Assembly: GCA_048571215.1 (NCBI GenBank)
Contig: CP182352.1
Coordinates: 3,232,001 to 3,296,000 of the forward strand
Length of the DNA stretch: 64,000 bases
From: Halarcobacter sp.
GTDB taxonomy: Bacteria > Campylobacterota > Campylobacteria > Campylobacterales > Arcobacteraceae
Direction of reading: 5' to 3'
Made by a program: the position numbers and the translations under genes
Shown: positions 12,144 to 26,800 of the stretch, piece by piece
Layout of the letters: every line of letters starts with the position of its first letter
Numbering within the stretch: position 1 is the stretch's first letter
Notes under the pieces: model-generated
Database searches by the model: none
Told to the model about the DNA's origin: nothing
Seen by the model: only the letters and a program-made list of their open reading frames with translations

Positions 12144-12202
12144 TTAGCACTCTATTATAATAATTGCTAAAAATATTAGCAGTTACTCTTGACAAGTGCT
12201 AA
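12144..12202. promoter_or_regulatory. Two tandem CIRCE-like (HrcA) operators overlapping the hsp20 promoter
   Basis: TTAGCACTC-N9-AATTGCTAA (12144-12170) and TTAGCAGTT-N9-AAGTGCTAA (12176-12202) versus consensus TTAGCACTC-N9-GAGTGCTAA. Confidence 0.8.
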
Positions 12203-12218
12203 AAATATTTGTTATAAT
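12189..12218 (+). promoter_or_regulatory. Sigma70-type promoter of hsp20
   Basis: TTGACA (12189-12194), 18 nt spacer, extended -10 TGnTATAAT (TATAAT at 12213-12218). Confidence 0.75.
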
Positions 12219-12974: not shown

Positions 12975-13712
12975 ATGAAATATTTTGAACTAAAATGCTT
13001 GGCATATATTAAAAAAGAGATTGAACTAAATGAAAGCTTTGATGCTCTATCTAGCTATATAAACTATTGTTTTACAAAAGATGAAGTATTGAAAAAACTA
13101 CATGAAGAAAAAGACTTCAAAAACTATTGTTTTGGGAATTTTTACCCAATAGAAAAAAACAAGGTATATAAAAAAGGAAACACTTATGAGTTTGTGATAC
13201 GCTCATTAGATGAAGAGTTTATTTATAAATTACAAAAACTATTAAGAGAAAATGTAAACAATAGTTTTTTTCAAGTACTACAAGCAACAAAAAAAGTGGT
13301 AAAACAATTTTTTGTAAGTGAACTATATACAATAACCCCAACCATCACAACAGTAAAAGATGAAAATGACAAATCAATATTTTGGACTCTAGATAAAGAT
13401 GGAGATATCTTAAAACTGCAAGAACAACTTCAAAAAAATCTTTTAAAAAAATACGAAAACTTTTATAATGAAAAACTAGAACCAACACAAAACTTTATCC
13501 AACTACTAAAAATCAAAAATCAAAAACCACAATCAATATATTTTATGAAAAAGATAAATGATAATAAAAGTATAAGAGTAAGACTCTTTGGAAATAAGTT
13601 TAAAATAGTACCAAATGAAGATGAAGTAAGTCAGAAGTTGGCGTTTGTTGCTTTAGCTTGTGGACTTGGGGAGAAACAAAGTTATGGTGGAGGGTTTTGT
13701 TTATGGAAGTAG
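12975..13712 (+). CDS. cas6: CRISPR-associated endoribonuclease Cas6
   Basis: C-terminal G-rich loop GLGEKQSYGGGF; first gene of the cas operon. Confidence 0.92.
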   Translation: MKYFELKCLAYIKKEIELNESFDALSSYINYCFTKDEVLKKLHEEKDFKNYCFGNFYPIEKNKVYKKGNTYEFVIRSLDEEFIYKLQKLLRENVNNSFFQVLQATKKVVKQFFVSELYTITPTITTVKDENDKSIFWTLDKDGDILKLQEQLQKNLLKKYENFYNEKLEPTQNFIQLLKIKNQKPQSIYFMKKINDNKSIRVRLFGNKFKIVPNEDEVSQKLAFVALACGLGEKQSYGGGFCLWK

Positions 13713-15466
13713 TTCAAGAAAATTTATTTAATGTTACACAAAAAGATAAAATTGTTTCTAAAAAGTTTACGGTAAAAGATGTATTTTTTAATAACGGTTT
13801 AGTAAATTTATACCAGTTCTTACAAGAGTATGCTTTTGATATTGATATTAAATTAGAAAAAAGTTTTTTAGAACTTAAATACCAAGATGAAGAAATCTTT
13901 TTTAAGATTTTGAATAAATTCTTAGAAGAAAAAGAGATAGTTACTTTTAATAAAAAAAATACAAGAATATTTTTTGATACAAATACAAATGAATTTACTC
14001 AAGCTGCTAAAGTAAATATAAAAAACGGTGGGAGTAATGATTCTAAAAATGCTTTGATAAGAGTTCATATTAGTGATTTATCTATATCAAAAGAAGAACT
14101 ATTAAAAAAAGAAGAAAAATATGTACAAGAAAATGAAAATCACACTAAAGATGAGTATAAGATAGAGAAGTGTTATTATGATAAATCAAAGCAGGAAATT
14201 TATGTATTATCATCTTTACAAGAACATATTGAAAAGTTTTCTTCATACTTAGTAAAAGATGATTTTTTGGCTTTAAATTCTTCTATTCATAATTTTGAAG
14301 ATGGGCAAAAAAGTTTTCATGATATGATAAAAATATCTAAAAATTATAATATAGACAAATGGGAAGCTTTAATTTACTGGTTTGGTACAAAAATACAACA
14401 CTATTTTAACTTTGCTTTTTTTATCTATCCAAACTCATCTAATATAGAAGCATTAAATATTTTTAAAAGAGATTTAAAAATAAAAGATGAAAAAAATAGT
14501 TTTAGAGATGAAAATGATACTTTAATAACGACAAATACAAATGTTAATTTTTATGACCAATTGAGAAAAGATAAGATATTTGGCAAAAAGTTTAAAAATT
14601 TTTATATCTCTAAAAGTGATGTTGAATTTGAATTAAAATTTTTTATGTATTTATTTTCAAAAATTTCTCATATAGAAAGTAGTTATGAAAAAGCTTTAGA
14701 TAAAGATAAAATGACAAAAAGAAAAGAAAAAATTTTTAATGCCTTACAAGAGATTACTTTTGTTGTCTATGTTGAAGATGGGACTTTCAAAAAGTCTTTA
14801 AATGAATATACAAAAGCATATCAGTTTATACAGTTTTTAGAGAAACTTAAAAAAACAAAAATAAATGTTCAAAAAGAATATGAGAGTAATCTTTTTGTTT
14901 ATCTTGCTGATATGATAGTGACATTTGGGTTATCTCAAAATTCAAAAGAAATAAATATAAATTTTCAGAAATGGTGTAAAGCTTTTTTAGAGTTTAAATC
15001 TCTTAGAAAGTATTATTATACAACTAGTTTTAATATTTTGAAAAATGAATCTAAATCTTTTGGTAAAGGTTTATATGAATTTGAAAAAATTTATTTAAAA
15101 AATATAATGAAAGGGAAAAATATGAACATTCTAGAAGAATCTAAAAAACTTGGTGAACAAATTGGTGATTTTGCATCTAAAAAATTTGATATGGTAGATA
15201 AAAAAGGGGATAAAGATTTATTATTTAAAATTAGAAATATTAAAAATAGTAAACAATTATTAAGTTTCTTAAAAGACGTAGAGTTTACATTTTTGAAAGA
15301 TTATAAAAGTGAGTCTACTAATAATTATTATCTTGATACAACAAAATTATTAGTAGATGAATCATTTATTACAAATAATTGGGAAGCAATAAGGGATTAT
15401 ATTTCAATTTTTGCGATAGATAAATATAAAAGAGTAATGTATAGTAAATCAAATAATCAAAAATAA
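13703..15466 (+). CDS. cas8: Type I-B large subunit Cas8 (Cst1-like), divergent
   Basis: Position between cas6 and cas7, about 590 aa, FFNNGLVNL N-terminal motif; ATG 13703 after GGAGGG. Confidence 0.75.
   Translation: MEVVQENLFNVTQKDKIVSKKFTVKDVFFNNGLVNLYQFLQEYAFDIDIKLEKSFLELKYQDEEIFFKILNKFLEEKEIVTFNKKNTRIFFDTNTNEFTQAAKVNIKNGGSNDSKNALIRVHISDLSISKEELLKKEEKYVQENENHTKDEYKIEKCYYDKSKQEIYVLSSLQEHIEKFSSYLVKDDFLALNSSIHNFEDGQKSFHDMIKISKNYNIDKWEALIYWFGTKIQHYFNFAFFIYPNSSNIEALNIFKRDLKIKDEKNSFRDENDTLITTNTNVNFYDQLRKDKIFGKKFKNFYISKSDVEFELKFFMYLFSKISHIESSYEKALDKDKMTKRKEKIFNALQEITFVVYVEDGTFKKSLNEYTKAYQFIQFLEKLKKTKINVQKEYESNLFVYLADMIVTFGLSQNSKEININFQKWCKAFLEFKSLRKYYYTTSFNILKNESKSFGKGLYEFEKIYLKNIMKGKNMNILEESKKLGEQIGDFASKKFDMVDKKGDKDLLFKIRNIKNSKQLLSFLKDVEFTFLKDYKSESTNNYYLDTTKLLVDESFITNNWEAIRDYISIFAIDKYKRVMYSKSNNQK
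15122..15466 (+). CDS. cas11: Putative internally translated small subunit Cas11 (in frame with cas8)
   Basis: AAGGG + 6 nt + ATG in frame inside cas8, giving 114 aa MNILEESKKLGEQIG. Confidence 0.6.
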   Translation: MNILEESKKLGEQIGDFASKKFDMVDKKGDKDLLFKIRNIKNSKQLLSFLKDVEFTFLKDYKSESTNNYYLDTTKLLVDESFITNNWEAIRDYISIFAIDKYKRVMYSKSNNQK

Positions 15467-15475
15467 GGAGAAGAA

Positions 15476-16399
15476 ATGTTTTTAAATATCGCATATATTA
15501 CAAAAGTAAATTTAGCATCATTAAATGGTAGTGAAGGGACAGGTGGGAATATAACTGAAATGAAAAAAATTGCAAGTGCAAATGGTGAAGAGTATGCTTA
15601 TGTTTCGGGACAAGCTTTAAGAAGATATTTTAAAGAAACACTACTTCAACTAGGACAAAGAATTACAGAAGTTAGTGAAAATGGTAATCCAACTTTTAGA
15701 GATGAAAATGGTAAATATATAGATCTTGATAAAAAATTAAAAGATGTAAAAGAATTGGCCTATAAAAAGTTTATAGATCTTGATCTTTTTGGATATATGT
15801 TCCCAAATGGTGGCAGAAGATGGTCTCCTGTAAAAGTTACCCCTCTTATATCAATACTTCCATATAAAGGTGAATATGATTACCTTACAAGAAAACAAAA
15901 ACCAAAAAAAGAAAATGAAAAAAGTGGGAATATTGTACAAATAGAGATAGATACATTAAATTTTATGAGAGGGAATATTATGGTAAATACTTCTCATATA
16001 GGAAATGAAATCGATGAATATACTTATGATGTAAATGAAATTTTAGATAATGAAGAAAAAAATAGTAGATTAAATATTTTTTTAGATGCTATTAAAAACT
16101 TTAATGGTGGAGCAAAACAATCAAGAAACCTTGAAGATATTTCACCAAAATTTATAGTAATAGCTAAACAAAAAACTGGGAATCCATTTTTATTAAATAG
16201 CTTGGATGTGGATATTGAAGGTAATATAAATATTGAAAATATAAAAGAATCTATTGAAGACACAGATGTAGAATCTCTAACTATAGGCATATCAAAAGGG
16301 ATATTCAAAAATGAAGAAGAGATAAAAAATAGCTTTGAAAATGTAGTTTCTGTAGCAAAGGCAATAGAAGAGTATAAAGATATATTAAAGAGTAAATAA
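15476..16399 (+). CDS. cas7: Cas7 (Cst2/DevR type)
   Basis: SLNGSEGTGGNITEMKK, YVSGQALRR, DLDLFGYM, RWSPVKV. Confidence 0.93.
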   Translation: MFLNIAYITKVNLASLNGSEGTGGNITEMKKIASANGEEYAYVSGQALRRYFKETLLQLGQRITEVSENGNPTFRDENGKYIDLDKKLKDVKELAYKKFIDLDLFGYMFPNGGRRWSPVKVTPLISILPYKGEYDYLTRKQKPKKENEKSGNIVQIEIDTLNFMRGNIMVNTSHIGNEIDEYTYDVNEILDNEEKNSRLNIFLDAIKNFNGGAKQSRNLEDISPKFIVIAKQKTGNPFLLNSLDVDIEGNINIENIKESIEDTDVESLTIGISKGIFKNEEEIKNSFENVVSVAKAIEEYKDILKSK

Positions 16400-17118
16400 T
16401 GAAAGTTATAAGATTTGAGATACAAGGTCTTATGAATTCATATAGAATACCTTTTTTTAGAACTTATCATAAAAGTTTTTTAGCTCCACCAAAAACTACT
16501 ATCATAGGAATGCTTTGTAATATCTCATTAAAATCTCAAAAAGAGTTTTTTGAGATTTTAGATAAAGAGGTATTTGAAGTATCAGTTGTAATAAATGAGA
16601 TTAAAGGTAGAGCTAAAGATTTATGGTCATATAAAACTTTAGAGAAAAAAAATATGGGAAAAAGTGTAGTTAGAAGAGATAAACTTTTTTCTCCAAAATA
16701 CACGATATATCTAAAAATAAAAGATAAAAAACTTTATAATGAAATTTTAGAAAATCTAAGATTGCCTAAAAATACTCCATCTTTAGGAATGGATGATGAG
16801 TTGATAGAGATAAAAAATATCAAAACCTTAGAGATGGAAGAACATGACACTAATAAAATAAATTCTATTTTTTTAGATAAAAATATTTCTTATAAGGCAT
16901 ATGTGAAAGATTTATCAAAAAGTATAGAGCTTCCAACTATAAATTTAGCTTCTACAAAGTTTATAGCTTTTGATAAAAAAAATAAAAGAATACCAAAAGA
17001 GTCAAATAAAGATTTTGAATTTAGTCAAGTTGAGTATTTAAATTGTGAAATAGAGTTTGCTAAAGATATAGAGAGTTTTGTGGATGTTGAACTTAATAAT
17101 AAAGTGGTGTTTTACTAG
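16399..17118 (+). CDS. cas5: Cas5 (type I-B)
   Basis: SYRIPF...APPKTTIIGML N-terminal Cas5 motif; SLG loop. Confidence 0.92.
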   Translation: MKVIRFEIQGLMNSYRIPFFRTYHKSFLAPPKTTIIGMLCNISLKSQKEFFEILDKEVFEVSVVINEIKGRAKDLWSYKTLEKKNMGKSVVRRDKLFSPKYTIYLKIKDKKLYNEILENLRLPKNTPSLGMDDELIEIKNIKTLEMEEHDTNKINSIFLDKNISYKAYVKDLSKSIELPTINLASTKFIAFDKKNKRIPKESNKDFEFSQVEYLNCEIEFAKDIESFVDVELNNKVVFY

Positions 17119-19319
17119 TGAAAATATTAGCAAAAAAAATCGTAGAAGATGAGCAGATTAAAACTCAGACTTTACAAGAACATACAAATTGGGTTATGGA
17201 AGAAGCTTTGAAATTAATAGATGATAAGTCATTATCAAAAGTTTCTATAATAAGTGGTTGGAAAAAAGAAAAGATTTTAGATTTGATTTTTTTTAGCTGT
17301 TATTTTCATGATATTGGAAAAGCTACTATTGAATTTCAAAATACTATTAATAATGGAACTAATTCATATCATTCTTTATATAGTGTAAGTGTTTTAAACC
17401 AAATAAATGAATTTAATATTTCAGGTGAAGAAGATAGCACTATAAATTTATTACTAACTCTTTGTTTAACTCATCATACACTATTACCATATAATAGTAA
17501 TAATGCATATTTTACTTTTTTAGATAGTGTAGAGAGTATTTTTTTTAATTATAAAGACTCTTATAAAAATTATTTAAATAAAGAGTGTTTATATGATTTT
17601 GATTTTGAGATAGAAGAAGATATAGAAGATATTTTATTTGATATTGAAGATGATTTAAAGTACATAAAAGAAAATCATAAATTAAGAACACTTTACACAT
17701 ATTGTAGTGGTATATTGAACCTTGCAGATTGGCTTGCAAGTGCTAGGTTTAGCAGAAGTTTACCAAAAACATATTTTGAAAAACTACCCACAAAAGAAAA
17801 TTTTAAAGGAAAATTATCTTTCTTTCAATTAAGAGATTTTCAAAAAGATTTATCAATTTTAAGTAAGAGTGTACTTGTAGAAATACCAACAGGAGAAGGG
17901 AAAACAGAAGGTTCTCTCCTTTGGGCTATAAAAAATCTATATGATAAAAACTCTAAGGTTATATATACTCTTCCTACACAAGTAACTTCAAATAAATTAT
18001 ATGAAAGAGTGACTTCTCTTTTTGATAAAAATGAATGTGGACTTATACATTCATCTTCAAAGTTATATCTTGAGAAGGAGTATGAAAAAGAACATGGTTT
18101 AGTAGATGACTTCTTTAAAAGTGAAATAACTTTTAATAAAAACTTTTCAAAGCCTGTAACTGTTTCTACTATTGATTCTCTTTTAAAGTTTTTCATAAAT
18201 ATTGGTAGATTTAATATTGCAACAAAAAACTATTTAAATTCAGTTGTGATTATAGATGAAGTGCATTGTTATGATTTTAAACTAATGGGTTTTTTAAAAA
18301 AGTTTTTAGAACTTTGCAACGAATTTGATGTAAAAGTTTGTTTGATGAGTGCATCTATTCCTAAAAAGATAAAAGAATTATTAGGTATTGAAAACTATCC
18401 AATTATCACTGAGAAAAAATTATTTAAGAAAAAAGCAAATGAAATTATAAAAATAGATGAAGAACTTGATGAAAACTTTGATTTAATAATTAAAAAGTTC
18501 AAAGAAAATAAAAATATATTAATTATAAGAAATAGTGTAAAAAGTGCAACAGATACATATAAAAAGCTTAGAGATGATTATGGTATAGATGAAGATGATT
18601 TGATACTTTATCATTCTACATTTAAAAAAAGAGATAAAAATCAAAAAGAGAAGGATATTTTTGATAAGTTAGATGGTAATAAACCTTTTATTTTAATTGC
18701 AACTCAAATAGTAGAAATATCATTAGATATTGATTTTGACATAATGTTTACAGATAATGCTCCAATTGATTCTTTGATTCAAAGGTTTGGTAGAGTGAAT
18801 CGTAAAAAAGATGAAACTAAAAAGGGAGTAATATATATTTTTAAATATGAAAAAGAGTTCCCTTATAAGTCAAAGTATCTAATACAAACAACTTTTGATA
18901 CTATAGAAAATGGATATTTTGAACTTGGGGAATATGTAAAATGGCTAAATGTAGTTTATGATAAAGTATTTAAAAATGATATAAAGATAAATAATGAGAT
19001 AGATAGCCTATTTAAACAAGGATATAAAAAATATGATGATGTTCTAAAAGAATTAGATGGAATAAAAAAATCTGAAGATAATTATGACTTAAGACATATA
19101 GAGCAATCTAAAGTAGACTATTTATTAGTAGATGATTTTTTAGATGATAATATAGATTCAAAAAAATTTCATGAATATACTATTTCATTACCAAATTATT
19201 ATGGAAAAAAATATCTTTATATATCACAAAAAGAATCTTTTTATAAAGTTTTAGACTTAAAATATAATTATAGAGAGGGATTATTAATAGATGATGATAA
19301 GTCTTGCGAATTTATGTAA
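17118..19319 (+). CDS. cas3: Cas3 HD nuclease-helicase
   Basis: LQEH, HDIGK, ADWLAS, PTGEGKT, DEVH, SAS, QRFGRVNR. Confidence 0.96.
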   Translation: MKILAKKIVEDEQIKTQTLQEHTNWVMEEALKLIDDKSLSKVSIISGWKKEKILDLIFFSCYFHDIGKATIEFQNTINNGTNSYHSLYSVSVLNQINEFNISGEEDSTINLLLTLCLTHHTLLPYNSNNAYFTFLDSVESIFFNYKDSYKNYLNKECLYDFDFEIEEDIEDILFDIEDDLKYIKENHKLRTLYTYCSGILNLADWLASARFSRSLPKTYFEKLPTKENFKGKLSFFQLRDFQKDLSILSKSVLVEIPTGEGKTEGSLLWAIKNLYDKNSKVIYTLPTQVTSNKLYERVTSLFDKNECGLIHSSSKLYLEKEYEKEHGLVDDFFKSEITFNKNFSKPVTVSTIDSLLKFFINIGRFNIATKNYLNSVVIIDEVHCYDFKLMGFLKKFLELCNEFDVKVCLMSASIPKKIKELLGIENYPIITEKKLFKKKANEIIKIDEELDENFDLIIKKFKENKNILIIRNSVKSATDTYKKLRDDYGIDEDDLILYHSTFKKRDKNQKEKDIFDKLDGNKPFILIATQIVEISLDIDFDIMFTDNAPIDSLIQRFGRVNRKKDETKKGVIYIFKYEKEFPYKSKYLIQTTFDTIENGYFELGEYVKWLNVVYDKVFKNDIKINNEIDSLFKQGYKKYDDVLKELDGIKKSEDNYDLRHIEQSKVDYLLVDDFLDDNIDSKKFHEYTISLPNYYGKKYLYISQKESFYKVLDLKYNYREGLLIDDDKSCEFM

Positions 19320-19330
19320 AAAGGTAGAAT

Positions 19331-20143
19331 ATGGACAAAATACAACTTTTTGAATCGAAACAGATAAGAAGTCATTGGGATGAAAATAGTGAATTGTGGT
19401 ATTTTAGTATTGTAGATGTAGTGACAATATTAACTCAAAGTGCTAGTCCTAGAAAATATTGGAATAAACTAAAACAGAGATTAAAAGAGGAAGGAAATGA
19501 AACGGTGACAAATTGTCACCAGTTGAAAATGAAAGCATCTGATGGTAAGATGAGACTTACTGATGTAGCTACTACAGAACAACTTTTAAGGCTTATCCAG
19601 TCTATTCCCTCACCTCAAGCTGAACCTTTTAAAATGTGGCTAGCAAAGGTTGGCTATGAGAGAATAGAAGCTATACAAGATCCTGAAAAGTCTATTGATA
19701 CTGCTTTGAGAGATTATATGAAACTTGGATACTCTGAAAAGTGGATAAACCAAAGACTTAAAAGTATTGAAGTAAGAAAAGAGCTAACTGATGAATGGAA
19801 ACAAAGAGGAGTAGAAGAGGGTAAGGAGTTTGCTCTTCTTACTGATATTATTTCAAAAGCTTGGAGTGGGAATACTACAAAAGAGTATAAAAAACTCAAA
19901 AATCTCAAAAAAGAGAATCTAAGAGACAATATGACAAATCTTGAGCTAGTTCTTAATATGCTTGCAGAAGCAACCACAACAGAAATCTCAAAAGAAAAAA
20001 AGCCAGATGGACTAGATGAAAGTAAAAAAATAGCTAAAGAGGGTGGAACAATAGCAGGAGATACGAGAAAAGCGATAGAAGAAAAAACAGGTAAAAGAGT
20101 TGTAACAAATCAAAATGCAAAAGACTTATTAGAAAACAAATGA
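19331..20143 (+). CDS. Bro-N domain (phage antirepressor-like) DNA-binding protein
   Basis: IRSHWDE..WYFSIVDVV, YWNKLKQRL, DGKMRLTD, IPSPQAEPFKMWLA, ENLRDNMT. Confidence 0.85.
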   Translation: MDKIQLFESKQIRSHWDENSELWYFSIVDVVTILTQSASPRKYWNKLKQRLKEEGNETVTNCHQLKMKASDGKMRLTDVATTEQLLRLIQSIPSPQAEPFKMWLAKVGYERIEAIQDPEKSIDTALRDYMKLGYSEKWINQRLKSIEVRKELTDEWKQRGVEEGKEFALLTDIISKAWSGNTTKEYKKLKNLKKENLRDNMTNLELVLNMLAEATTTEISKEKKPDGLDESKKIAKEGGTIAGDTRKAIEEKTGKRVVTNQNAKDLLENK

Positions 20144-20634
20144 AAATAAACGGCACTTTAATCTCATACTTTTTTATATGTAAAACAAAACTCTGGCTTC
20201 ACGCCAATCGCATAAACTTAGAAGACAATAGCGAAGATGTACGAATTGGTAAAATTTTACATGAGATAAATGAATCAAAGTCAAAAAAAGCTGAGATAAG
20301 TATTGACAATATCAAGATAGATAAACTCACCCGTGATTATTTGGTAGAGATTAAAAAAAGTGATAGTGATATAGAATCTGTACGATGGCAGGTTTTACTT
20401 TATCTTTATAAACTAAAACAAAAGGGTGTTGAAAGAAAAGGGAAAATAGAGTTTATTGAAAAAAATAAACAAGATAAAAAGATACATTATATTGACTTAG
20501 ATGAGGTAAATGAAAAAGAGCTTTTAAAAATATGTGATGAGATAGAAACTCTTATAAATGCACCAGTACCACCAACAGCAAAATTTGAAAACAAGTGTAA
20601 AAAGTGTGCTTATTATGAGTATTGTTTTATATAA
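20140..20634 (+). CDS. cas4: Cas4 exonuclease
   Basis: Fe-S cysteines (CKTK; CKKCAYYEYC), KIDK..VEIKKS, QVLLY. Confidence 0.95.
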   Translation: MKINGTLISYFFICKTKLWLHANRINLEDNSEDVRIGKILHEINESKSKKAEISIDNIKIDKLTRDYLVEIKKSDSDIESVRWQVLLYLYKLKQKGVERKGKIEFIEKNKQDKKIHYIDLDEVNEKELLKICDEIETLINAPVPPTAKFENKCKKCAYYEYCFI

Positions 20635-20642
20635 GGATTAAA

Positions 20643-21963
<1,321 letters not shown>

Positions 21964-22127: not shown

Positions 22128-25100
22128 CTTGAACCAAGACATATAATGTATTGAAATGTTTTTACTTTATAAACTGGTATGGGACGAGACTACTTGAACC
22201 AAGACATATAATGTATTGAAATTTATAAATACTATCAATTAAAGCTTTTGGAAGTTGCTTGAACCAAGACATATAATGTATTGAAATTAGTTTTGTTTAA
22301 GTGGAATTAAATCGCCTTGATTGCCTTGAACCAAGACATATAATGTATTGAAATGCACTACCTCAAGAGTATTAAAATTTGTCAATGTCTTGAACCAAGA
22401 CATATAATGTATTGAAATATATTTAAAAAAAGGTAGCAAGGTTTTACTTGAGGGTCTTGAACCAAGACATATAATGTATTGAAATCGTTATCAGGTCGTT
22501 AACTTTAGTAGCTTCGGTTACCTTGAACCAAGACATATAATGTATTGAAATTCTTTAAAGTATTGCATCTGAGTTTCAGTTAGTCTAACTTGAACCAAGA
22601 CATATAATGTATTGAAATGAATTTGAATATATTAAAATAGAAGATAAAAGTAGCTTGAACCAAGACATATAATGTATTGAAATTCACTTTACCAAACAAT
22701 ACTAGCAGGTACTGGAAAAACTTGAACCAAGACATATAATGTATTGAAATTTCGTAATTTTAGATGTACCAGCGATATAGGGAGTCTTGAACCAAGACAT
22801 ATAATGTATTGAAATTAGTTAAACTTCTTTATTTATAGATGTTTTTGAACTCTTGAACCAAGACATATAATGTATTGAAATAACCCATAGTGAGTATGAG
22901 AACCTTGAAAAGTATTTCTTGAACCAAGACATATAATGTATTGAAATAATTTACCAATAGCTATTAATCTTAATCTATTGGACTTGAACCAAGACATATA
23001 ATGTATTGAAATCCAGCTCAATTAGTTAGACCTTCAATAACTGTTTCTTGAACCAAGACATATAATGTATTGAAATAGGACTATCTAGTTCTATGATTTA
23101 TGGAGCAGGAAGTCTTGAACCAAGACATATAATGTATTGAAATTAAATTGGTTTAGGCTCGTTGAAACAAAATATTTCAAACTTGAACCAAGACATATAA
23201 TGTATTGAAATTTAGCAGTAACAGATGTACAAGGTACAAAATTATCTTGAACCAAGACATATAATGTATTGAAATACATCTACATTTTATTTGACTGGGT
23301 ATGTAGTATCTTGAACCAAGACATATAATGTATTGAAATTTATATAGAACATCATTAAGTTATCCAAACGGTAACTTGAACCAAGACATATAATGTATTG
23401 AAATCATCAACCACCCCCAAATCTTTGGAGTGCAACTACTTGAACCAAGACATATAATGTATTGAAATTACTTAATAAAATATCATTCTCATTTGCTGAT
23501 GTCTTGAACCAAGACATATAATGTATTGAAATTTGTATGCAGCCATTTTGCTATTTAATTGTTGTTCCTTGAACCAAGACATATAATGTATTGAAATATT
23601 GACTTTTCATCTATTTGTTTTCTTAGTATTTCCTTGAACCAAGACATATAATGTATTGAAATAAATTAGAAATTGTCCCTACTTTATTATTCCCCTCACT
23701 TGAACCAAGACATATAATGTATTGAAATCCCTTAGTACTAAACTTAGTACTATTACACCAAACACTTGAACCAAGACATATAATGTATTGAAATTAATAA
23801 GAACCTTTCTTAAATTAAAAATTAATTAACTTGAACCAAGACATATAATGTATTGAAATATTAATAAATATTCTAAGCTGCTAAATCAAGAGTGTCTTGA
23901 ACCAAGACATATAATGTATTGAAATTTGATGAAAAACTAACAAAGGAAACTATATGAGAGCCTTGAACCAAGACATATAATGTATTGAAATTTGTTTGGT
24001 TGGATTTGGAGTAGAGAAAACAAAATACTTGAACCAAGACATATAATGTATTGAAATCGTAGAAAAATGGTAGAACAATGGAATAAAAGTGGACTTGAAC
24101 CAAGACATATAATGTATTGAAATCCAAAGTTTTCAGTTTCCCAAGCGACTATTGGTGTACTTGAACCAAGACATATAATGTATTGAAATAAAGCTACAAA
24201 TGTTGCTTATAAAGTATTTAATTTCTTGAACCAAGACATATAATGTATTGAAATTTTGAAGTTATTTTCAAATCATCAGGTCTAACCTTCTTGAACCAAG
24301 ACATATAATGTATTGAAATGCATCAAAAGTAATCACAACTTCGTCGCTATCAACCTTGAACCAAGACATATAATGTATTGAAATCTATTTTGATATTCAT
24401 CATCAGGATTTAATAAATCCTTGAACCAAGACATATAATGTATTGAAATAGGTATTGCAAATGGCGATTACTACATAATTCCTTACTTGAACCAAGACAT
24501 ATAATGTATTGAAATCAAGCTACAATATTTGTACAGTTTGCAGAAAAAGCCTTGAACCAAGACATATAATGTATTGAAATATGTATGCAAATCCAAACGG
24601 AGTATATTTCCCATTACCTTGAACCAAGACATATAATGTATTGAAATTGCACTTGATGCACTAAAATCATAGTCAGGCGAAACTTGAACCAAGACATATA
24701 ATGTATTGAAATACTGGAACAACGCTATCTCTTGGAAATAAAACAGGCCTTGAACCAAGACATATAATGTATTGAAATACTAAAGTAATAACACTAAAAC
24801 CATCATCATAAAGAGCTTGAACCAAGACATATAATGTATTGAAATCATGAAATTGCATTGACTGGGGGATATTTAATTTACCACTTGAACCAAGACATAT
24901 AATGTATTGAAATCCGCTTATAGAAATTACAAACATAGTTTTATTTGTACTTGAACCAAGACATATAATGTATTGAAATATCTCTACCCCATCTTAGAAG
25001 ATGAGATATCTTCCCCTTGAACCAAGACATATAATGTATTGAAATTCTGGTTTAAGCGTTAAGTAGCCGTTAGCATTGACTTGAACCAAGACATATAATG

Positions 25101-26086
25101 TATTGAAATTACATAGTTAAACCAATTGAAAGAGTTTGAATAACTTGAACCAAGACATATAATGTATTGAAATCGAAAATCCAGTTACTCTTTTATATTT
25201 ACTATATTCTTGAACCAAGACATATAATGTATTGAAATCAGAATGGAATATCTGGATATTTCACATTAATGAATACCTTGAACCAAGACATATAATGTAT
25301 TGAAATTAACTAAGTTAACGGCTGTCATAACTAGCACGAACTTGAACCAAGACATATAATGTATTGAAATCTCAATAGATTGATAATCATCCCCATGCAC
25401 AATAACCTTGAACCAAGACATATAATGTATTGAAATGAAACAGAGGAATCAGAACCATAACACTCAGGACTACTTGAACCAAGACATATAATGTATTGAA
25501 ATAAATGTATGAGGGGTTTCAAGGTTTAAAAAGATTCTTGAACCAAGACATATAATGTATTGAAATCACAGTTGCCATAATGTTCTTCAATTTCTAAATC
25601 ACTTGAACCAAAACATATGATGTATTGAAATAGAACTTTCTATTTTTTTGTTATCACAACCTGCACTTGAACCAAAACATATGATATATTGAAATTTAAC
25701 CGTACATTTTTGACTAATTTTCCAACCTTCTTGAATCAAGACATATGATGTATTGAAATATAATGCCTCTAAAAACACTAACAATACCAGTTTTCTTGAA
25801 CCAAGACATATGATGTATTGAAATATCATTGCACCTTTTAATAAGTTGTTTGTTGTCATTCTTGAACCAAGACATATGATGTATTGAAATAAGCTCACTC
25901 ATGCTGAATGGGCTAAAAAAAAGGTACTTGAACCAAGACGTATAATGTATTGAAATTTCTTTTTTATTTCTTAGTATAGCTACCATGCTTTCTTGAACCA
26001 AAACATATGATGTATTGAAATTTTGTATCTACATTGATATAATCAGGTTTTTCATACTTGAACCAAGACATATGATGTATTAAATA
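22128..26086 (+). CRISPR. CRISPR array, 61 repeats (30 bp CTTGAACCAAGACATATAATGTATTGAAAT) and 60 spacers of 34-38 bp
   Basis: Counted by hand. Repeats 1-53 are identical, repeats 54-61 are variant, and the last is degenerate; ATTGAAAT 3' end is typical of type I-B. Confidence 0.98.
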
Positions 26087-26283
26087 ATAGTATATGCTTT
26101 TTTTTAAGATTTTATTGTTAATGATATATTTAGAAATATATCATCTCAAGCCTTATCTATTGGTGTATTCATTTTTTATTTTAATAAATCTTTTGGACCT
26201 TAAAATTATTAAAAATTTCTAATATTTTATTTTTTGTATTTAATTTTGTCATTTAAATTATCTTGTGTTATAATTTTTTTTAA

Positions 26284-26365
26284 AAGCATCTGAATGTGAT
26301 TTTTCACCATGCGTCCCGTTCAAGCTAGCTTGAAGTGAGGGAGTAGACGACCTCTCCAGATGCTT
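26284..26365 (+). ncRNA. Candidate structured small RNA of unknown family
   Basis: GC-rich island with closing stem AAGCATCTG/CAGATGCTT and inner palindrome TTCAAGCTAGCTTGAA; extended -10 TGnTATAAT at 26266-26274. Confidence 0.5.
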
Positions 26366-26411
26366 CTTTACAAATCTTTTTAATTCATTTCATTTTGTAT
26401 TTATTAAAAGT

Positions 26412-26432
26412 TTTGAACCAAAATATATGTAT
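26412..26432 (+). repeat. Orphan degenerate CRISPR repeat
   Basis: TTTGAACCAAAATATATGTAT resembles the trailer variant CTTGAACCAAAACATATGATGTAT. Confidence 0.45.
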
Positions 26433-26464
26433 AAAAAAAGATTTTTAATTTTTTAATATAAAAT

Positions 26465-26800
26465 CTATCCCAGTAAATCTTTCAATGACAAAAATTTTAG
26501 ATTTATCCCACTATATCTCATGATTTTTGCTGTTTCTTTCCATTGTTTTTTTTCATAGCAAGGGGTGGGGCATTTTCTACATTTTGGTTTTATTTCGTGG
26601 GAACACTCTTGGAGACGTTGAAAGGAATAGTTTATTTTTTCTAAACACTCTTTACATAGCTTCAAGTTTAAAGATATGTTTGTATCTTTGTATATCAAAG
26701 TAAGTTTCGTATTTATTTGATTTGTATGTTTTCTATCACAATAAAACTCAAAAAACTTTTTTAAGGTAGTTATTTCTTCATTGAACTTTTTTATTTCCAT
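26465..26800 (-). CDS. YgbA-like (nitrous oxide-stimulated promoter family) Cys-rich protein
   Basis: FYCDRKH, LCKEC, RLQEC, KPKCRKCPTPCY, IMRYSG. Confidence 0.85.
   Translation of the reverse strand: MEIKKFNEEITTLKKFFEFYCDRKHTNQINTKLTLIYKDTNISLNLKLCKECLEKINYSFQRLQECSHEIKPKCRKCPTPCYEKKQWKETAKIMRYSGINLKFLSLKDLLG

Follow-up and report, generated by a model that had tools for sequence, protein, structure and literature searches.

CRISPR-associated RNAs of the CreA and CreR type are described in PMC8501985 as a spacer-like guide between degenerate repeats, which provide an 8-nt 5' handle and a 3' handle. Mobile elements also carry type III toxin-antitoxin systems (toxIN, cptIN, tenpIN), in which an endoribonuclease is paired with a pseudoknot-forming RNA (PMC12283969). 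Iyer et al. 2017 (PMC5512222) describe the PBECR domains of polyvalent proteins as predicted RNases borne by prophages and T4SS elements; the terms 'antisense', 'noncoding' and 'RNA structure' do not occur in the main text of that paper. In H. pylori, the polyvalent genes HP0488 and HP1116 are listed with antisense RNAs that are uncharacterised (PMC8322730). Oversized pseudo-spacers are likewise known, an example being SiL-E1, a long mobile-element fragment between CRISPR repeats (PMC3718332). Searches of a mainly open-access literature listed no description of the RNA family reported here or of RNA antitoxins of PBECR domains, although the candidate-RNA tables of PMC8040213 may contain the motif.

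The window referred to below is the whole stretch of DNA that was analysed (64,000 nt). Its relevant features are the following:

12975..21963, + strand: type I-B cas operon (cas6, putative cas8, cas7, cas5, cas3, Bro-N gene, cas4, cas1, cas2), from ORFs and Pfam
22128..26086, + strand: CRISPR array of 61 repeats of 30 nt and 60 spacers of 34-38 nt
26087..26411, no strand: 325-nt segment in spacer position, from the last full repeat to the degenerate repeat, probably an oversized pseudo-spacer
26246..26274, + strand: sigma-70 promoter TTGTCA-17-TATAAT with extended -10, predicted start near 26282
26261..26389, - strand: remnant of a former coding frame, 43 codons (what is left of the nuclease domain's tail; the domain proper is gone)
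26284..26365, + strand: structured RNA (the island), from homologs and covariation
26284-26292/26357-26365, + strand: P1 of the island RNA, a 9-bp stem enclosing both ends
26296-26299/26304-26307, + strand: P2 of the island RNA
26319-26324/26329-26334, + strand: P3 of the island RNA
26337-26341/26352-26356, + strand: P4 of the island RNA
26312-26315/26346-26349, + strand: probable pseudoknot of the island RNA, weakly supported by the own-pair test
26412..26441, + strand: degenerate terminal repeat, 5' part retained and 3' handle lost
26465..26800, - strand: ygbA-like gene (PF11756), convergent neighbour outside the element

The CRISPR trailer and its island behind a predicted promoter

The 82-nt island at 26284-26365 has a GC content of 47.6%, compared to 15.6% and 12.1% in its flanks and 28.5% genome-wide, and it folds with a modest z-score on the + strand (-2.1 to -2.6) and with a z-score of -3.2 on the - strand. 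We confirmed both this GC-rich island in AT-rich DNA and the extended -10 (TGTTATAAT, 26266-26274, 180 nt past the last CRISPR repeat), which the first-pass annotation had located correctly; absent from that annotation was a -35 element, TTGTCA, at a 17-nt spacing from TATAAT, which brings the promoter to 11 of 12 consensus matches. The island promoter was the best-scoring of 10 sites found, while the number of sites is itself not enriched because shuffles predict 8.8. The AT-rich flanks at 26167-26210 and 26388-26432 are loosely similar to each other; an apparent direct repeat of the two RNA flanks was borderline and was set aside, as 8 of 500 shuffles scored equally well and so did 28 of 2000 AT-rich windows. 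A likeness to the right end of an IS200/605 or TnpB element was also abandoned, since the genome is without PF07282 and the homolog context (see below) supplanted the idea.

The degenerate repeat at 26412 proved to be real, with an alignment score of 32.5 that was reached by 0 of 2000 AT-rich control windows. Because the RNA sits between two repeats, its place in the trailer is no accident of neighbourhood, and this part of the CRISPR link drawn by the first-pass annotation stands. The regulatory part, a CreT/CreA-like or Cas6-processed regulator, was not supported: the homologs sit in phage and plasmid nuclease genes, and only 2 of 53 family loci lie near arrays. A CreT-, CreA- or CreR-like RNA, whose degenerate repeat and flank would guide Cascade to a promoter, is considered very improbable. 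The genuine repeat speaks for it, as do the 36 nt past the repeat, which match a T-rich stretch upstream of cas6 at 13 seed positions (1 of 300 controls); however, this match is one of nine comparisons and of low complexity. The locus has one degenerate repeat, which has lost its 3' 8 nt and with them the 8-nt 3' handle, no second repeat follows, and neither the RNA nor its left flank showed a repeat match above controls. Six possible CreT minigene starts were found in 26282-26412, none with an SD and tandem rare codons, although CreT types that have no minigene would escape this criterion. The first-pass annotation had allowed that a 7-nt likeness between the RNA and the repeat could be chance, in agreement with our finding that a 7-mer was shared in 18.8% of 5000 shuffles and that the match was carried by 0 of 33 homologs.

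The linkage to I-B loci, which had been put forward as a check, was not borne out. The window Cas7 (15476-16399) is 100% identical in G047 (L180) and 97% identical in G151 (L182), both genomes of other genera, which indicates recent horizontal spread of this I-B locus; the island RNA is absent at the I-B loci of G047, G151 and G014. Ten further genomes encode this Cas7; no RNA match was obtained in eight of them, the match in one was at chance level, and that in the tenth, G203, was strong. The island RNA is not a core CRISPR part, as eight other genomes carry this I-B system without it. It is also absent from the closest relative, G100, where the first 90 nt of cas6 abut the 5' edge of one repeat exactly and are followed by ygbA (L029, G100:C2, about 1310-1430). 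The entire cas operon and array have been lost in G100, and the cas6-repeat junction was also seen in contigs of DNA run X6. In the window's operon, we infer from its position that a 602-aa ORF without a Pfam match is cas8. A Bro-N gene (270 aa, 19331-20143) splits the operon between cas3 and cas4, and BLAST blocks suggest that several related I-B loci are without it. Elsewhere in the window, repeated TAGCAC/GTGCTA motifs at 12150-12210, upstream of a small heat-shock gene, presumably resemble a CIRCE/HrcA operator.

The first-pass annotation had named one function that would undo its own reading, that of a mere terminator for the convergent ygbA-like gene, and we weighed this together with a more general 3' structure of that gene. 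The RNA is located 100 nt past the ygbA stop and the minus strand folds at the z-score given above, but no terminator was called, 16 other ygbA loci had no match, the homologs lie inside nuclease genes and the promoter is on the plus-strand side, which leaves this explanation with a negligible probability.

An RNA family antisense to nuclease-like genes

The island RNA is a member of an uncatalogued structured RNA family that is absent from Rfam. In a covariance-model search of the island against Rfam 15, nothing reached the gathering score (best E 1.9), in keeping with the earlier proposal of a promoter-driven structured noncoding RNA outside the catalogued families. The homolog search that had been recommended by BLAST (island against 184 family genomes, phages and plasmids) returned matches of the AT-rich flanks only, whereas covariance models succeeded. 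With a model built from the island alone, homologs at E 1e-8 to 1e-10 turned up in 4 of 150 other genomes of the phylum. One built from six sequences gave matches in 24 of 131 family f11 genomes (one judged chance) and in 10 of 149 genomes across the order (three judged chance), and yielded only two chance-level rows in 150 genomes of the window's own family. Exact-pattern scans produced chance matches in viral sequences, 25 matches in GTDB that were all unrelated and, in another scan, 109 matches of which 4 were real. No carrier of the RNA was listed among public runs, contigs of four DNA runs contained no further homolog, and one candidate (L179) was discarded because it lay within a coding gene. 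Chance rows were removed before counts (L378, L384, L385 and two 16-bit rows; later L449, L453 and L454), and 48 distinct copies were collected. Named plasmid matches point to Campylobacterota as the taxa carrying the family.

In the predicted fold, P1 shuts both ends and P2, P3 and P4 are arranged round a four-helix junction. In the model-fitted alignment 96.9% of cells pair (slid controls 33-46%), with two-sided changes in 22 of 23 pairs, while an unfitted MAFFT alignment of the 48 copies gave 83% pairing for P1 (slid controls 27-44%), 95% for P2 (15-59%), 95% for P4 (35-59%) and 62% for P3. Compensatory changes were present in every core helix, so that the covariation check suggested by the first-pass annotation came out positive. 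Its stem reading was right for the closing stem and the hairpin; for the nested CGTC/GACG stem, pairing with the loop of a fourth helix (GAGGG/CTCTC) as a pseudoknot is the better reading. This pseudoknot (CGYC/GRCG) is probable: 72% of cells pair, two-sided change occurs in 1 of 4 pairs only, and an own-pair versus cross-pair test was weak (379 of 5000 permutations). The core is conserved, including the junction bases, the lengths of P3 and J2/3 are variable, and several copies run into T-rich tails. Family or related RNAs stand in tandem behind one promoter at L244, L245, L417 and L451.

Family copies lie antisense within prophage polyvalent-protein ORFs of 400 to >1000 residues that bear PBECR1, PBECR2 and LPD23, and in solo genes of about 180 aa on conjugative elements (149 plasmid records, all Campylobacter or Helicobacter), the plasmid home including the pTet cpp33 slot. 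At 23 of the 34 copies found by the RNA model and at 36 of all 47 copies, a nuclease-like domain lies on the complementary strand immediately 3' of the RNA, the domain profile having been seeded from 5 of the genes counted as partners. RNA matches were present at 15 of 15 scanned domain loci (22 fetched, many near-identical) and at 21 of 27 in a set of 29 fetched, the other 6 being without. The RNA promoter coincides, in reverse complement, with protein-linker codons of the IIPQ or NSTQ kind, and TGnTAnnnT was found upstream of 29 of 47 copies compared to 4.4% of control windows. Long polyvalent genes hold several such RNAs, some in tandem, and copies were also found where the cognate mRNA is gone. 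Tails that end on NSTQ/IIPQ-type codons, the reverse complement of an extended -10, likewise come after the PBECR1 and PBECR2 domains of polyvalent genes, among them L246 (747-2852), and further hidden RNA families are likely.

The partner domain comprises roughly 110 residues (217 representatives in the protein library) and matched no Pfam or NCBIfam family. In a structure comparison of its model (pLDDT 89), CdiA toxins and tRNases, a Salmonella toxin-antitoxin complex, colicin D and BrnT led the list, with middling top matches (Z 5.3-6.6, all under 8; rmsd 3.2-4.1; 75-91 residues aligned). The top Foldseek rows were CdiA, HigB and YoeB, none at E<=0.001, and the Atlas neighbours were PBECR3 clusters (0.86-0.88). 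His35, His98 and Asn100 are nearly invariant. By its predicted structure, the domain has a BECR ribonuclease fold.

Catalytic and binding RNAs typically combine a junction with a pseudoknot, and this architecture, together with a conserved core and variable P3 and J2/3 lengths, would suit a cofactor, whether the RNA guides or scaffolds the nuclease, cleaves itself or binds a ligand. We regard such a role as decidedly improbable, as no ribozyme or riboswitch matched in Rfam, the variable parts fold back on themselves and the RNA's strand has no gene downstream.

At the pTet cpp33 slot there are two alleles, alike at their ends but different in domain and antisense RNA. The allele of C. jejuni 81-176 (L387 986-1651) carries another domain and a shorter antisense RNA that gave no match to the family model. 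An antisense start within this gene was detected by dRNA-seq with a step height of 8855, the second-highest among the pTet rows listed (PMC3656092 Table S5), and the published position is the first base of the closing stem of that RNA. Although this start concerns a different RNA and not the window's family, the two alleles and the dRNA-seq start indicate that reverse-strand promoters of such a kind fire and that domain and RNA change together. The promoter strings of family copies were not found in PMC3656092 Table S4, and the polyvalent genes of the H. pylori phages phiHP33 and KHP30 gave no RNA-model match.

We lean, by a little over even chances, towards an RNA that acts as the antitoxin of the predicted BECR nuclease, most likely by means of its closed junction and pseudoknot and with one RNA per domain. 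The RNA would be transcribed antisense from the promoter in the reverse strand of the linker codons, fold into a closed four-way junction with a pseudoknot and bind or decoy the enzyme. An alternative explanation is a cis-antisense regulator in the style of type I toxin-antitoxin systems, which would pair with the nuclease mRNA and lead to its decay or cutting, with the fold serving for stability only. By position the RNA is wholly complementary to the nuclease mRNA, T-rich tails follow several copies, and the H. pylori antisense RNAs to HP0488 and HP1116 (PMC8322730) fit the same pattern. However, both RNA ends are locked in a 9-bp stem, the junction bases are conserved, long genes bear several such RNAs, tandem ones included, and copies persist without any cognate mRNA. 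We consider antisense pairing unlikely and favour protein binding because of the closed conserved junction, the one or more RNAs per domain, the swapping of cassettes and the survival without mRNA.

Probable capture in CRISPR arrays and possible fates of the window copy

Within 1.5 kb of a CRISPR array we found 2 of the 53 family loci, namely the window and G203, a genome of another family (70-contig assembly, 8% contamination). The G203 array consists of 58 normal spacers, a 400-nt spacer, four normal spacers and then a 1.82-kb insert. The 400-nt spacer (L441 11406-11805) lies between two intact repeats and contains a phage-portal-like piece (tblastx E 1e-5 to KHP30), while the 1.82-kb insert is a piece of a polyvalent gene that begins at the repeat edge and contains the closest copy of the window RNA (73% identical). 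The insert is followed by a degenerate repeat, a 225-nt tail segment (L441 13950-14174) and a terminal degenerate repeat. This tail segment comprises the end of another domain together with a promoter-like site and a distinct structured RNA that gave no model match, in the same arrangement as the window's 325-nt segment. The family RNA has probably been captured into arrays at least twice, because this second I-B-type array holds the closest copy in a phage-gene pseudo-spacer, and the two captures look independent because orientation and insert differ. Spacers of the window and of G203 gave only short chance matches to family loci among the matches listed.

The window copy probably entered its array within an oversized, phage-derived pseudo-spacer. 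The segment is a long insert flanked by repeat 61 and by the significant degenerate repeat, and its RNA and tail match phage and plasmid genes; since none of the fetched phage loci matched the 159 nt that precede the promoter on its left, the proposed origin is based on position and analogy. All 24 P1-P4 pairs of the window copy are intact and its promoter retains 11 of 12 matches, while the opposite coding frame is down to 43 codons. The first eight codons of this remnant resemble homolog tails, or the domain's last helix, by eye only, the domain profile giving 0.9 bits, and the cognate nuclease domain had no match anywhere in the window's genome. The window copy would be a phage-derived piece caught in the array, with the nuclease domain gone and promoter and RNA intact.

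In a tentative proposal to which we give less than even chances, the host would retain the window RNA as an orphan antitoxin, whose effect would be to blunt the nuclease that phages or plasmids bring in. Competing with it is the view of the window copy as a neutral remnant of a captured fragment, irrespective of the family's role in phages; this is likewise possible but falls short of an even chance. In line with a relic, the RNA is single-copy in its genome, it is absent from G100 and not clearly found in 150 other family genomes, and the genome has no cognate domain. The intact pairs and promoter opposite a frame of 43 codons argue against it, as do eight other orphan copies in a like state, though these were found by a structure model (ascertainment). 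Orphan copies outside arrays were seen at L363, L364, L380, L372, L373 and L361, in intergenic or decayed mobile regions and mostly with the promoter kept. In the nine orphan copies 151 of 152 cells pair, compared to 437 of 442 in 26 others, an intactness that is partly forced because the copies were found with a structure model.

A broader scheme would have the BECR nucleases of phages and plasmids each carry a cognate protein-binding RNA antitoxin, encoded opposite their own linker codons, with domain and RNA shuffled as a cassette and the RNAs stolen by bacteria, partly via oversized spacers, and retained as a second, Cas-independent immunity layer that acts on injected or transferred nucleases; we consider this speculative and, taken as a whole, rather unlikely. 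The analysis adds a new family of structured RNAs that shows strong covariation and is carried by common conjugative plasmids and prophages of Campylobacter. The antitoxin reading offers a testable answer to the question of how polyvalent RNases without a known protein immunity partner spare the producing cell. It further suggests that the low-complexity, IIPQ/NSTQ-ended 'linkers' behind such domains are in truth reverse-strand promoters and RNA genes, as could then hold for many more domains. In view of two apparently independent captures, CRISPR arrays may also keep functional antitoxin RNAs beside target memories.

Comparison with known systems

The locus resembles CreTA in combining a small RNA with an ectopic repeat at a type I-B locus; it differs in having no two-repeat, crRNA-like unit with handles and no rare-codon minigene, and in not being conserved with the cas locus. 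As in the SiL-E1 pseudo-spacer, a long insert, here probably from a mobile element, is bounded by repeats, but in the window the right repeat is degenerate and the insert retains a promoter and an intact noncoding RNA.

With type III toxin-antitoxin systems the family shares a predicted nuclease-fold domain and a probably pseudoknotted RNA on mobile elements. The RNA is, however, a single four-way junction placed antisense and 3' of the domain, whereas type III RNAs are same-strand upstream repeats, and where type III systems have ToxN, CptN or TenpN, the partner protein has a predicted BECR fold, no Pfam or NCBIfam match and only BECR proteins among the fold neighbours listed. The likeness to type I systems such as IsoA/AapA lies in an antisense RNA with its own strong promoter over the mRNA of a putative toxin gene, an arrangement found in the family, while the window copy is without a toxin gene. 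Type I toxins are small membrane peptides; the partner here is a folded RNase domain by prediction, often within polyvalent proteins of 1000-1800 residues.

The host genes of the family carry PBECR1, PBECR2 and LPD23 and in this respect resemble the PBECR systems, from whose families the partner domain differs in being absent from Pfam. The closest described transcripts are HPnc2240, HPnc2250, HPnc5970 and HPnc6000 of H. pylori and the cpp33 antisense start of 81-176, which likewise lie antisense within polyvalent or solo genes of a like kind; the 81-176 RNA differs from the window's family in being unmatched by its model, and the HPnc RNAs were compared by description only.
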